A stretch of 64,000 nucleotides of DNA from an uncultured Chloroflexia bacterium (GTDB lineage: Bacteria > Chloroflexota > Limnocylindria > QHBO01), in assembly GCA_963825525.1 (NCBI GenBank), contig CAWGTN010000002.1:1728001-1792000 (forward strand), read 5' to 3'. Below the pieces are notes generated by a model that searched no databases, was not told where the DNA came from, and was given only the letters and a program-made list of their open reading frames with translations. The position numbers were made by a program, and so were the translations under genes. The first letter of the stretch is position 1, and every line of letters begins with the position of its first letter. Positions 23,332-27,946 of this stretch are shown here, piece by piece.

Positions 23332-23853
23332 TCAGGTTGCGTCCGAATCCAGGACGCCGGAGCGTCCCGCCGCCCAATCCTCGACGGCAGCCGCCATCGA
23401 GGCAAAGGCGATCCTGGGAAGCCAGGAGTCGATGGCCGAGCGTGGGACCCAGCGGTGATCGCTCGACTCGAAATCGAGACTGACCTCGGCACCGGGCTCC
23501 ATCGGTCGTGCGCGGTAGACCGCGGTCACGGCGTTCGCCGGCGGAGAGTGATAGACCCCGGCGAGCGCCACGAGCCGCACCTCCAGGCCGGACTCCTCGC
23601 GAGCCTCACGGCGTGCGGCCATCTCGAAGGATTCGCCCGGGTCAAGGTAGCCGGCAGGAAGGTCCCAACCTCCGCGGCCGGGATCGACGGCTCGTTTCAG
23701 TAACAGGATCGCCGGCTCGGTCCCCTCACGCTCGAGGAGCACCGCCGCGGCCGGGCGCGGATTCGCGTACCAGCGCCAGCTGCAGCGCTCGCAGACTAGC
23801 GGCTGCTCGGCCGTGGTCGCGCAGTGCGGACAGGCGACCACGGAACGGCTCAC
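23332..23853 (-). CDS. NUDIX hydrolase with N-terminal zinc ribbon
   Basis: CPHC...CERC; Nudix box GYLDPGE....AARREAREESG. Confidence 0.88.
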   Translation of the reverse strand: MSRSVVACPHCATTAEQPLVCERCSWRWYANPRPAAAVLLEREGTEPAILLLKRAVDPGRGGWDLPAGYLDPGESFEMAARREAREESGLEVRLVALAGVYHSPPANAVTAVYRARPMEPGAEVSLDFESSDHRWVPRSAIDSWLPRIAFASMAAAVEDWAAGRSGVLDSDAT

Positions 23854-24320
23854 GCCGGGAGGGTAGCAGCGTCCCGATTGTCCTGATCCCGTGCGTCGCT
23901 CTCGATGAACGCCTCGACCCGCAGCCGAAGATCGTCTCGCGCGTCCCTGAAGGCGGCCACGCGTGCCTCGGGGTCGGCCTTGATGGCCGATGGGTCGTCG
24001 ACACTCCAGTGGAGCTGCCGGCGGACCCCGGGGATGGTCGGACACGACTCACGGGCCTGATCGCAGACCGTGATCAGCCACGCGAATGACTCGCCGAGAA
24101 ACGCCTCCAGGGTCTTGCTGGACTGCGTCGAGATGTCAATGCCGATCTCGCGCATGACCTCGATCGCCTCGGGACGCACCCCGGTAGCCTCGGTACCCGC
24201 GCTCATAACCTCGAATCGGTCCGCGGCCCACGCTCGCAGCATGCCCTCCGCCATCTGGCTGCGAGCGCTGTTGTGGGTGCAGACGAAGATCACGCGGTCG
24301 CGTTCCGGTTCTGGCCTCAT
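23850..24320 (-). CDS. arsC: Arsenate reductase / LMW-PTP family
   Basis: FVCTHNSARSQMAE, ITVCD....CP, HW..DDP; TACGAT -10 6 nt before ATG. Confidence 0.88.
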   Translation of the reverse strand: MRPEPERDRVIFVCTHNSARSQMAEGMLRAWAADRFEVMSAGTEATGVRPEAIEVMREIGIDISTQSSKTLEAFLGESFAWLITVCDQARESCPTIPGVRRQLHWSVDDPSAIKADPEARVAAFRDARDDLRLRVEAFIESDARDQDNRDAATLPA

Positions 24321-24341
24321 CCGCAGATCGTACGTCGATCG

Positions 24342-24403
24342 TCGTCCACAAGTGGGGAAAGGCTGTGGATAACTCCCCCAATCGGCGGCAAGTTGGTGGA
24401 GAA
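24342..24403. promoter_or_regulatory. DnaA-box cluster
   Basis: Perfect TGTGGATAA at 24364-24372; degenerate TCGTCCACA 24342-24350, TGGGGAAAG 24353-24361, GGTGGAGAA 24395-24403. Confidence 0.6.
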
Positions 24404-24445
24404 GGGGTATGGACGGCGCGGCGCGCGGGCACGTATGCTCAGTTC

Positions 24446-24515
24446 GTCCCGAAGGGGCAGCCAACGGCACCAGCGATTGCATCAACGGTCTGACGGCGGT
24501 TCCTTCGGGACATTT
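24446..24515 (+). ncRNA. Candidate small hairpin RNA
   Basis: GTCCCGAAGG (24446-24455) pairs perfectly with CCTTCGGGAC (24502-24511) and extends with G-U pairs; begins 6 nt after TATGCT (24434-24439); followed by ATTT. Confidence 0.4.
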
Positions 24516-24570
24516 CGCTGTCCGGCTCCGGGCATCGACGGCTCCGTGGCATGCCGTACCATCGAGCACC

Positions 24571-26064
24571 GTGCCGACGCTCCGAGAGATCCTGAACGCC
24601 ACCCTGGCCATCGTCGGGTCGGTGGTTGTCGCGACCATGGCCGCAGTCCTCGTCGACGTGGCGGGTGCGACGCCACCCGTTCCGCCGGCTGTCGCCGCAG
24701 CCGTCGTCGCCGTCTGCTTCTGGTGGCGCGCACCGGAAGGACTCGGGGCCTTCGGCGTCTTCGTGCTGCTGGCCGCGACGATCGAGCATTGGACAGGCGT
24801 CGACTTGCTGCTGTTCGACGAGATCGCCGTGCTGATGTTTGCCGTGGTGGCGGTCGTGCGTCACGGGGCCCCGAACGGAAGAATCCGGGTGGGTGCCGCC
24901 GAGCTCGGCCTGGCGGCGCTCGCCGCGGCAGGGCTCACCTCGAGCCTCGTCGAGTCGGTTCCGGTGGTGACCATGCTGGCCGGCCTTGCGCTGCTGCTCA
25001 AGGCGGTGGCCCTGTTCTACATCGTCTCGTGGCTCCGACTTCGGTCCACCGACGTCGCGCGGGTTGGCATCGTCGTCATCGGCCTGGGGGTGCTCATCGG
25101 CTTCGCCGGCTTCGTGGAGTGGCTGAATCCGGCCGCATTCCAGACCGCCCTGAACCTGCCCCCGTTTGCGCAGACCCGTGGAGGCATCTCCGTGGTGCGC
25201 TCGATCTTCCTGCATCCCGCGCTCTACGGCTGGCTGACCGCCTTCACCGCGCTGCTGCTGTATGCGATCTTCCTGACCCGACGCTCGTGGTGGGCGCTCC
25301 CACTTGCCCTCGCCCTGAGCCTGGGGACCTTGCTCTCGGGGCGACGGACGCCGCTGGTGGGCGTCGTGCTCGGCCTCGTGGCAGGGCTGGCCTGGCAGTT
25401 CCGCAGCTCAGCGACGCGCGCCAGCCTGGTGCGGACCTGGATCCCGATCTTCGTCGCGGGGGTGGTCGCGATCGTCCTCCTCCTGCCGACGTTGAGCACC
25501 ATGGTCACCCACACGCTCAGCGAGTACCTGCCGGACCGAGCGGCGGTCTCGGAGCTCTTCTCGGACGACCCGGATCCGGCGGTCGTCGCCGTCCTCCATC
25601 CGCGGACGGCGCTCTACCTCGGCTCGGTGGCGGTCGCCATCGATCGGCTGCCGCTCGGCGCGGGATTCGGACGATACGGGAGTCACCTGAGCCGATCGGA
25701 GTACAGCCCGATCTACGCGGACTACGGGCTCGATCGGATCGCATACCTGCAGCCGGAGCGAGCGGATGCGGTCACCGACACCTATTGGCCGATGGTGCTA
25801 GGCGAGACCGGGCTCATCGGCCTGCTGGGGGCACTGACCTTCATCGGCGTCCTCACGGCTCGCCTCTGGCGGGCCACGGGTGCCTCGTCCGAGGCCCTGG
25901 TCCGCACCATCTCGCTCGGCGTGCTCATGATCTTCGCCGAGGGCCTCGTCCGGTCACTGACGGCGTCGGTCTACACCGCCCCGCCCATCGCCCACTTCAT
26001 CCTTGGCGCGGCGGGGCTCTCGATCGCCCTCCAGCGCACCGCCGAGGAGGAGAGCGCGGACTAG
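24571..26064 (+). CDS. O-antigen ligase / Wzy-like polytopic membrane protein
   Basis: Many TM helices; SIF.HP...G, LSGRRT, R..LY.......P.G.GFG.Y, D.......GETGLIG; TACCAT -10 8 nt before GTG. Confidence 0.75.
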
Positions 26065-26786
26065 AGCTCGATCTCCCGCTGCAGGCGTCGCACGACCTCG
26101 GCGGTCTCGTCGTCGGGCCCATGGCCCGGCTCGGAGGCCGGGCCGGCGAAGGTGCCGAACTGGCGGTCACCGGCGTCCCCGAGCCCCGGAACGATGTACC
26201 CGCGCTCGTTGAGGTGGGAGTCGAGTGCCGCAACGTGGATGTCGACGTCCGGATGCGCCGCGCTCAGGGTCGCAACGCCCTCGGGTGCGGCAATCAGGCT
26301 CACCTGCTTGATGCGTGCGGCACCCCACTGCTTGAGGATGTCGACGGTCGCCGCCGCCGACCCTCCGGTCGCCAGCATGGGGTCGAGGATCAGGCACACC
26401 TGGACGGTGGCCGCATCCGGGAGCTTGTTGTAGTACTCGACCGGCTTCAGCGTTCGCTCGTCACGATACAGGCCGATGTGCCACACCTCGGCCGATGGCA
26501 GAAGCTCGAGCATGGCGTCGACCATGCCGATGCCGGCACGCAGGATGGGGATCAGGCCGACCTTCGGCTCGAGCCGCGCCCCGGTCATCGGCTCCAGGGG
26601 CGTCTCGATCAGCTGGGGACGCGTCGCGAGGTCGGCCATCGCCTCGTAGCCGAGCAGCCAGGTCAGCTCGCGCACGAGCTCCCGGAACTTCTTCGGCTCG
26701 GTGGCTTTGTCACGCAGGATCGCGAGCTTGTGCGCGACCAGCGGATGCGAGCTGAGGTGGATGGAGTTCGATCCGGAATGCGACAT
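26061..26786 (-). CDS. upp: Uracil phosphoribosyltransferase
   Basis: [30 protein letters not shown]. Confidence 0.96.
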
Positions 26787-26827
26787 CGGCGCGATTCTAG
26801 CCCGCGCGAGATCGTCACAATGCGCCG

Positions 26828-27946
26828 ATGCGTCCGGTGCTGGTTCCTCTGCCGATGGCATTCGGCGCCTTCGGATTCCTGTGGGGCGCCTGGCAGGCGG
26901 CGTTGCCGGACCTCGCCGCCCACTACGGCCTGAGCACCGGTCCGCTGGGACTGATGCTGACCGCGGGATTCGCGGTCGCTCTGCCCGTCATGCTGGCGAC
27001 CGGCCGAATGATCGACCGAATCGGCCACCAGGTCGGGATCGCGGTCACGGCCCTGGGGCTGGCCTTGGGCCTCGTGGTGGTCGGGACGCTCGGGCCGCTG
27101 CCGGCACTCGTTGCCGGGGTCATCCTGCTGGCCGCCGGCAGCGGCGCCTTCGACGTCGCCATCAACGGTGCCGCGCTCGCCGACGAGGGATGGAGCCGTC
27201 CGGCGCGTCTGACGCTCCTCCACGCGGCGTTCAGCGGTGGCGGCATGGTCGGGGCGCTGGGGGCCGGCGTGGCGCTCGGTGCAGGCCTCCGCTTCGAGCT
27301 CGTCTATCCAGTGCTCGCCGTCGTGCTGCTGGTGGCGGCTAGCCTCTCACTGGCGGGGGAGCGCCGGCCGGTGGAGCGCAGCGGCACGGTTCCGCGCGGT
27401 ATCGCCATGGCCATGCTCCCGCTCGCCGCTCTGGCGGGGCTGGCCTTCCTTGCCGAGGGGTCGATGGAGACGTGGTCGGCCATCTACCTGCGCGACGCCC
27501 TCGGGGCCGCAGCGTTCGTGGGCGCGCTGGGTCCCGGGGCCTTCCATGCCGCGATGCTGATGGGCCGCCTGATCGGTGCCGGGGTGGCGACCAGCCTCGG
27601 CGCGCCCACCACTCTGCTGGTGTCGGGGTCCCTGATCCTCGTTGGCATGATCGTGGCGCTGGCCGTGCCGGTGGCGGGGGTCGCGATTGGCGCAATGTTC
27701 GTGGCGGCGCTCGGCGCCGCATTCGTGGTCCCTGTGGTGGTGAGCCTGGCTGGACGTCGGGCCGGACCGTACGCCGGTCGCGCCGCCTCGTACGTGCTCT
27801 CGATCGGGTACGCCGGCTTCCTGGTCGGCCCATCCGCCGTTGGGATCATCGGCGAGCTCGCCGGCCTTCGCGCCGGCCTGGCGGTCATTCCGCTTGCCGC
27901 CGTCATCCTGGTCATCGCCTCGCGCACGCGCGTCGTTCGGTCGTGA
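26828..27946 (+). CDS. MFS transporter
   Basis: About 12 TM; [20 protein letters not shown]....WS..YL. Confidence 0.85.

Follow-up and report, generated by a model that had tools for sequence, protein, structure and literature searches.

A family of small hairpin RNAs behind phased DnaA-type boxes in Candidatus Limnocylindria, with putative control by DnaA

The locus and its neighbouring genes

The window, that is the whole stretch of 64,000 nucleotides analysed here, belongs to an assembly of 2.58 Mb in four contigs that is 92% complete (hereafter the source genome). It contains a hairpin-forming sequence between a divergent gene for a low molecular weight (LMW) phosphatase and a same-strand ORF for a membrane protein, with upp lying beyond in convergent orientation (Table 1). 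The elements from which a small RNA had been predicted at this locus were all present to the base, with TGGACG, an 18-nt spacer, TATGCT, a 6-nt gap (cagttc), the two hairpin arms and ATTT following one another in this order, and the next gene has its own TACCAT (24557-24562) ahead of a GTG at 24571. The divergent phosphatase gene, with its ATG at 24320 on the - strand, appears to be leaderless, TACGAT lying 6 nt ahead of the ATG on that strand.

Table 1. Features of the locus and box clusters elsewhere in the source genome (positions in the window unless a contig is named)
Feature	Position	Strand	Remarks
LMW phosphatase/ArsC-like gene, divergent	23850-24320	-	Pfam LMWPc, E 1.7e-19; same neighbour in L007 and L016
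Reverse box TCGTCCACA (+ strand reading)	24342-24350	-	one mismatch from TTGTCCACA; kept as (A)TGTCCAC in orthologous window-type loci
Weak box TGGGGAAAG	24353-24361	+	11 bp upstream of distal box; three mismatches
Distal box TGTGGATAA	24364-24372	+	starts at -82 from presumed +1; perfect complement of TTATCCACA
Proximal box GGTGGAGAA	24395-24403	+	starts at -51; 31 bp from distal box; ends 6 nt before -35
Putative -35, TGGACG	24410-24415	+	aligns with TTGCGC, TTGATC or TTGACC of relatives
Putative -10, TATGCT	24434-24439	+	18 nt past -35, 6 nt ahead of RNA; TAnnnT or CATnnT at equivalent place in other copies
RNA core	24446-24511	+	fold; covariance model score 75.5 bits; pair counts
5' arm GTCCCGAAGGGGCAGCC	starts 24446	+	partner of GGCGGTTCCTTCGGGAC
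Terminal helix P1	24446-24458 with 24499-24511	+	predicted fold
Inner helix P2	24469-24471 with 24487-24489	+	predicted fold
Apical region AGCGAUUGCAUCAAC, conserved	24472-24486	+	
3' arm GGCGGTTCCTTCGGGAC	24495-24511	+	inverted repeat I3; then ATTT at 24512-24515
3' tail AUUUCGCUGUCCG	24512-24524	+	likely 3' end region; positional composition of 89 distinct copies
497-aa membrane ORF	24571-26064	+	no Pfam match; own TACCAT -10
upp (uracil phosphoribosyltransferase), convergent	26061-26861	-	Pfam
Box clusters, source genome	contig 1: 266074-266119, 233230-233291; contig 2: 1273597-1273650, 1369271-1369310		

In two relatives (L007 and L016) a window-type RNA lies between the divergent LMWPc gene and a convergent upp, and the conserved end of this convergent upp can be recognised by eye behind the RNA in about 16 of the 25 rows of an alignment of orthologous window-type loci, one row of which (L011) comes from the unpublished genome G006. 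The 497-aa membrane ORF is absent at this position from both relatives, which points to an insertion in this lineage. With a divergent LMWPc gene on one side and a convergent upp on the other the window-type copy stands alone as a gene.

Structure and conservation of the RNA

On the + strand the sequence is predicted to fold into a single long hairpin with a 13-bp terminal stem and a dG of -37.3 kcal/mol, compared with a mean of -23.0 kcal/mol for shuffled sequences (z -4.18, none of 200 equally stable), the fold of the - strand being weaker (-30.2 kcal/mol, z -2.87). The original prediction had put the length at ~66-70 nt; the conserved RNA extends ~13 nt beyond the stem. Across 89 distinct copies the tail keeps the consensus AYUUCNNUGYCC for 12-13 nt past the stem with conservation dropping after ~13 nt, such that the conserved unit of the window copy reaches ~24524. 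The tail may serve in 3' end formation, as a processing site or as part of an alternative helix. Pairing between tail and 3' arm is possible in 99 of 110 sequences compared with 65% of shuffled tails, with a mean of -8.5 kcal/mol against -6.3 kcal/mol, so that as an alternative helix it scarcely rises above chance. In a few relatives (e.g. L118 and L170) the tail duplicates the entire 5' arm. No intrinsic terminator, in the form of a hairpin and a U-run behind it, was found by a promoter and terminator consensus scan of 23500-25500.

The locus was compared with Rfam, as the original prediction had proposed, and no family matched: the whole window gave zero matches at the gathering threshold, and six paralogue loci gave nothing but a tRNA. 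When a 501-nt region was rerun with E values of up to 10 the sole match was to EAV_LTH, a viral leader hairpin, at 24606-24642; this was rejected as a chance match, scoring 21 bits against a threshold of 70 and lying inside the membrane ORF.

The 25 orthologous window-type loci hardly vary within the RNA, whereas their flanks on both sides have diverged freely. Broken or gapped cells are absent from all 13 P1 pairs in 43 distinct short copies, an invariance of P1 in the first taxonomic family that is partly by construction, the loci L102-L181 having been collected by a pattern demanding both arms and the copies extracted by arm patterns too. Three P1 pairs vary one-sidedly and always to a legal pair (A-U to G-U, G-U to A-U and C-G to U-G), with the changes A7>G, G11>A and C13>U taken up as G.U or A-U. 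As G.U-mediated changes would be A.C mismatches on the opposite strand, they support an RNA on the + strand. In P2 double changes occur in 13, 12 and 2 of the 43 sequences, with one broken or gapped cell at each of two of the three pairs. Alignment of 64 distinct copies to the covariance model gave 99.5% of cells paired compared with 96.2% in shuffled alignments and no more than 60.7% when the partners were slid, and 33 double-change cells where 8.8 were expected, the compared genomes being kin rather than independent samples.

The concern over construction of P1 is removed by compensatory changes in the second taxonomic family. When both families were taken together (104 distinct sequences) P1 pair 2 is U-A in 89 and G-C in 13, pair 1 shifts to U-G or U-A, and pair 10 is C-G once, with seven unpaired cells across the 13 P1 pairs of which five fall at the terminal pair. 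Double changes occur in P2 and in P1 pairs 1, 2 and 10, and the RNA has a conserved secondary structure with covariation. The original prediction had wavered between a stand-alone structured RNA and an attenuating leader; near-invariance in the 25 orthologous loci, covarying helices and a position between divergent LMW-phosphatase and convergent upp genes in relatives all speak for the former. Judged by these sequence comparisons the window copy is very probably a stand-alone RNA of ~79 nt.

The promoter and its upstream boxes

The putative promoter lies at a fixed distance from the RNA, in that the -35, the -10 and a gap of 6-7 nt to the first base are kept in all copies that were read. The scan of 23500-25500 flagged no promoter and the hexamers of the window copy are weak, matching 8 of 12 consensus positions, and for these reasons the promoter call rests on conservation in relatives.

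A perfect TGTGGATAA, as found in the window, is present at only seven places in the 2.58-Mb assembly. Boxes were counted as 9-mers with no more than one mismatch from TGTGGATAA or TGTGGACAA in the regions upstream of 89 distinct copies, these regions lying outside any selection pattern. At least one box was found in 88 of the 89 upstream regions, at least two in 74 and at least three in 13, compared with none in 89 equally long downstream regions and with a background in the source genome of 8.9e-5 per bp, equivalent to 0.011 boxes expected per 120 bp. In the 89 copies the boxes start at -93, -82 and -51 in uniform orientation, with a start at -93 in 20 copies (up to one mismatch), at exactly -82 in 61 (88 copies in all falling between -83 and -80) and at -51 or -50 in 51 (up to one mismatch), and the last box ends ~5-6 nt ahead of the -35. 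The spacings of 11 and 31 bp would place the boxes on one face of the helix. In the source genome two boxes 31 bp apart occur at five places, which are the five members of the RNA family described below and no other.

The individual boxes differ in quality. The weak box TGGGGAAAG aligns with TGGGGAYAA or TGTGGATAA in relatives, and the proximal box is frequently degenerate, reading GGTGGAGAA in the window and CGGGGATAA in the long copies of the family. The reverse box TCGTCCACA overlaps, as the sequence is read, the place where the -35 of the divergent LMW-phosphatase gene is likely to lie, and from this position the box array may touch that gene as well.

A family of five paralogues

The window copy, the one locus of the original prediction, is a member of a family of exactly five paralogous genes in the source genome, as established by DNA search, motif searches, reading of the loci and a covariance model. 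Many dispersed copies had been named as the mark of a REP/MITE-like repeat, and the copies found are five only, with their own promoters and with positions kept across genera. Next to the window copy with its core of 66 nt there are two further short copies of 62 and 60 nt and two long copies of ~105 and ~135 nt, the latter having CUUCGG-capped hairpins in their interiors. Common to all five are the 5' arm GUCCCGRAGG, the 3' arm GUUCCUYCGGGR and a short tail, and ahead of each lie GTGGAnAA boxes, a -35 and a -10 hexamer separated by 6-7 nt from the first base. The copies share no reading frame, and the indels between them have lengths not divisible by three, indicating that they are non-coding.

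The apical sequence is GAGAUUGCAUCAAC in two classes of the family, GAGAUCACCUCAAC or GAGAUCACAUCAAC in the third and GAGAUCGCAUCAAC in the second taxonomic family. The consensus loop of the second class has nine bases, GAUCACCUC, in common with the 3' end of 16S rRNA (L030, L039 and others), and the second-class copy of the source genome (contig 1 near 132132) is one base off GAUCACCUC. Mimicry of the anti-Shine-Dalgarno sequence by the second class was considered and rejected, the CCUCC core being missing or incomplete and the copy of the source genome having CACAUC.

The surroundings of the classes differ. In the second class a tRNA gene with its own promoter or a convergent gene comes next, while the third class always lies 35-45 nt ahead of the ribosome-binding site of a gene whose product is a conserved, membrane-anchored protein of 344 aa with no Pfam match, a spacing from which some members may double as leaders. 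A constant downstream gene or pathway, such as a riboswitch or an attenuator would have, was not found, the genes downstream being unrelated or convergent with the exception of this one paralogue class.

Distribution among relatives

By DNA similarity search the element was found in every one of the 24 other genomes searched from its genus (23 of 23 without the unpublished G006) and in none of 16 genomes from other families of the class. A covariance model (R1) built from the 43 distinct short copies detected 3-5 copies in each of 50 genomes of the same taxonomic family, representing 13 genera (47 of 47 without the unpublished G106, G115 and G141), and, in a second family, matched diverged copies weakly in 40 of 44 genomes, with none in 49, six and one genomes of three further families of the class. 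A phylum-wide search with R1 matched 10 of 10 and one of three genomes drawn from the two families and returned nothing from other families save one 28-nt match at E 7e-4.

Reading of 13 loci verified the copies of the second family as true homologues with a shared layout, comprising phased boxes, a TTGACC-type -35, a TAnnnT -10 and a tail as in the first family. There the RNA spans (A/U)GCCCGRAGGGGCC to GGUUCCUUCGGGC(C/G/A) and the apical motif is partly shared. Tandem pairs ~250 to 960 nt apart also occur in the second family (L226/L231, L227/L233, L228/L232), their interiors forming long near-perfect hairpins without GAUYRCAUCAAC.

In public contigs at least 119 stretches carry both arms, and most of the 80 listed are titled 'Candidatus Limnocylindria', 'Chloroflexota' or 'Chloroflexia'. 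Among these 80 listed matches seven bear titles of other phyla (L110, L127, L133, L136, L161, L165 and L178), namely Steroidobacteraceae, Desulfobulbaceae, Zixiibacteriota, Thermoplasmata and Sulfotelmatobacter, which are probably binning or labelling errors, and one further listed match is titled only 'uncultured bacterium'. As far as searched, the family is confined to two taxonomic families of Candidatus Limnocylindria. With more than 100 distinct sequences, clear covariation and no match in Rfam, it is an uncatalogued RNA family.

Assignment of the boxes to DnaA

DnaA is known to initiate replication and also to act on protein-coding genes as a transcription factor. In the source genome dnaA lies next to dnaN at a distance of ~230 kb from the window, and the 338-bp spacer between them (contig 2, 1521199-1521535) has four boxes with no more than one mismatch, where ~0.03 would be expected from the genomic background. 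The dnaA-dnaN spacers of six genomes from two taxonomic families were compared (the source genome and loci L239-L243). Two or three GTGGA-type forward boxes are present in four of the six, with a spacing of ~20-21 bp in three; a tandem ..TCCACACCGTCCACA.. is present in five with a variant in one, and an AT-rich stretch lies just ahead of dnaN in all six. The layout of the spacer looks like that of an origin, and the cumulative GC skew of the contig gives weak support, with its minimum at 1.445-1.505 Mb, within ~75 kb of dnaA at 1.519 Mb.

Other box clusters (Table 1) lie upstream of ftsZ, thyX, a gene for a parA-like ATPase (Pfam) and one unnamed gene, and taken together the clusters outline a candidate DnaA regulon. 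In Caulobacter, DnaA is reported to bind the ftsZ promoter in vitro (PMC10532879). The concentration of the motif in the dnaA-dnaN spacer and its presence before ftsZ, thyX and parA mark it, by sequence and location, as being of the DnaA type. A 9-mer matching TTATCCACA or TTGTCCACA, as looked for in a promoter of the DnaA regulon, is present as the perfect box of the window. The predicted tie to DnaA is thus supported at the level of sequence, with phased boxes upstream of 88 of 89 distinct copies and the same type of motif in the dnaA-dnaN spacer, and the window RNA is probably controlled by DnaA.

Transcripts, partners and targets

Sixteen sequencing runs contain a small share of the sampled words, of which four were examined. 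Three soil metatranscriptome runs from three studies yielded only contigs of 64-155 nt over 24447-24524, for which ends and strand are not readable and DNA or relatives are a possible source, and some of these contigs are chimeric between members of the family; as a sign of transcription they are at most a weak hint. The fourth run, probably of DNA, gave a 1236-nt contig of a relative.

Searches for protein partners covered 151 genomes of the class, none of which yielded a TROVE (Ro60/Rsr) gene (the controls, two named genomes, were positive), and detected neither Hfq nor CsrA in the source genome at its 92% completeness. A search for targets complementary to the loop (up to two mismatches in 14 nt) returned only the elements themselves and scattered matches in coding sequence. 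The best target site (contig 2 of the source genome, near 1233732) lies in the spacer before a repetitive surface-protein gene and was set aside as uninformative.

Proposed mechanism and alternatives

The reading that we favour, and hold to be a probable one, is that the window encodes a stand-alone non-coding small RNA of ~79 nt, one of five paralogues, with a DnaA-box promoter and under the control of DnaA. Each gene comprises two to four DnaA-box-type 9-mers, a sigma-70-type promoter, the RNA and a short conserved tail, and in the RNA the first 13 and the last 13 bases of the core pair in a clamp helix of conserved sequence that encloses a variable interior. DnaA, by occupying the array of boxes, would set the rate of transcription such that the level of the RNA would report DnaA activity. 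Clamp and tail may provide protected ends, a 3' end and perhaps a docking site for a protein, with the single-stranded apical motif GAGAUYRCAUCAAC available to recognise a target, either an mRNA or a protein. It is possible, if short of probable, that the RNA acts in trans through this motif. Rather more tentatively, Limnocylindria may route DnaA activity into 3-5 paralogous small RNAs as a post-transcriptional arm of the DnaA regulon which operates without Hfq, CsrA or Ro60.

An alternative keeps the RNA family and reinterprets the boxes, which would serve either another factor binding GTGGAnAA or the titration of DnaA by clusters that coincide with promoters, like datA or the clusters of Bacillus. 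The confinement of the 31-bp box pair to the five family members would fit a dedicated factor, and equally simple descent from one ancestor, and is joined by the spacing of ~20-21 bp rather than 31 bp in the boxes of the dnaA-dnaN spacer and ftsZ and by the frequent degeneracy of the proximal box (GGTGGAGAA, CGGGGATAA). Set against this most copies have the textbook consensus as their distal box, the dnaA-dnaN spacer holds its four boxes where ~0.03 were predicted and the motif precedes ftsZ, thyX and parA, which are typical genes of the DnaA regulon, while box positions directly upstream of the -35 that are kept in two families favour control of the promoter over titration alone. We regard this alternative as unlikely.

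Two further explanations concern the RNA itself. As a cis-acting 5' leader cassette it would combine a promoter with a stabilising or attenuating hairpin controlling the gene downstream, in the window that at 24571-26064, which begins on the same strand 60 nt past the stem; one class always precedes a ribosome-binding site and a conserved gene at 35-45 nt, one long copy precedes a hydrolase gene, and the pairing of 3' arm and tail (99 of 110 against 65% when shuffled) recalls switches. Yet the gene downstream is convergent (upp) both in the two relatives examined with Pfam and, judged by eye, in roughly 16 of the 25 alignment rows, the ORF downstream in the window is an apparent insertion with its own -10, what follows a further class is either a tRNA gene that has its own promoter or a convergent gene, the genes on the downstream side show no relation to one another and the alternative helix barely beats chance (-8.5 vs -6.3 kcal/mol), all of which makes a leader quite improbable. 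Inverted-repeat ends and several copies per genome would also suit a repeat acting at the level of DNA, whether a mobile element of REP/MITE type or a bidirectional terminator serving the convergent gene, and in relatives the RNA does lie directly after the upp stop codon on the other strand. Such a repeat is scarcely credible given only five copies, where REP/MITE elements are high-copy and non-syntenic, loci that are syntenic across genera, promoter and boxes kept on one side only in every copy, a conserved apical loop sequence and G.U changes that preserve pairing on one strand only, and a terminator lacks its U-run on both sides.

If Limnocylindria do route DnaA activity into these RNAs, replication initiation would be coupled to how cell-cycle and other mRNAs are translated or how stable they are, or the RNAs would feed back on DnaA or the origin, and this would be the first RNA family known with DnaA-controlled promoters. 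A conserved multi-copy RNA family behind phased DnaA-type boxes offers a testable link from replication initiation to riboregulation. To our knowledge no regulatory biology is known for this lineage, which is abundant in soil and freshwater and uncultured, and the signature of the family (two boxes 31 bp apart, a promoter and a clamp helix) may be used in annotating such genomes.

Comparison with known systems

Among CC-licensed papers in PubMed Central and bioRxiv none was found on the promoter of a small RNA under DnaA control, and the Limnocylindria literature from the same sources had no RNA-focused title among the matches listed. The family resembles Y RNAs and bacterial YrlA in that its ends pair in a sequence-conserved terminal stem around a variable interior and in having several paralogues. 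It differs from them in lacking a TROVE partner (0 of 151 genomes), a match to Y_RNA or YrlA in Rfam and a tRNA-like domain. Identity with Y RNA or YrlA was rejected on the failure of both the Ro60/Rsr partner and the Rfam match, and with no TROVE gene in the class the resemblance is one of shape only.

The sibling small RNAs Qrr1-5 and OmrA/B require Hfq and are governed by two-component or sigma-54 regulators. Like them, the family described here has paralogues within a genome that share a common promoter architecture and a conserved exposed motif; unlike them, it occurs in a genome in which Hfq and CsrA were not found and its regulator motif is of the DnaA type.

Arrays of boxes also lie upstream of promoters regulated by DnaA, such as those of Bacillus sda and E. 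coli nrdAB and that of Caulobacter ftsZ (PMC10532879). The present family resembles these promoters in having several 9-mers upstream of and adjoining the -35 at a spacing of whole helical turns, and in the source genome ftsZ is likewise preceded by boxes. The DnaA-regulated promoters found in the comparison differ from the present ones in driving protein-coding genes.

Closest in concept among the papers found is CcnA of Caulobacter crescentus, a single gene with a CtrA-driven promoter. It is reported to encode a cell-cycle-regulated non-coding RNA acting on CtrA and GcrA (PMC8959179). The present family departs from CcnA in its DnaA-type boxes, in its unrelated sequence and structure and in having 3-5 paralogues per genome. 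What the two would have in common is a small non-coding RNA placed under a master regulator of the cell cycle or of replication, suggesting a post-transcriptional arm of control.
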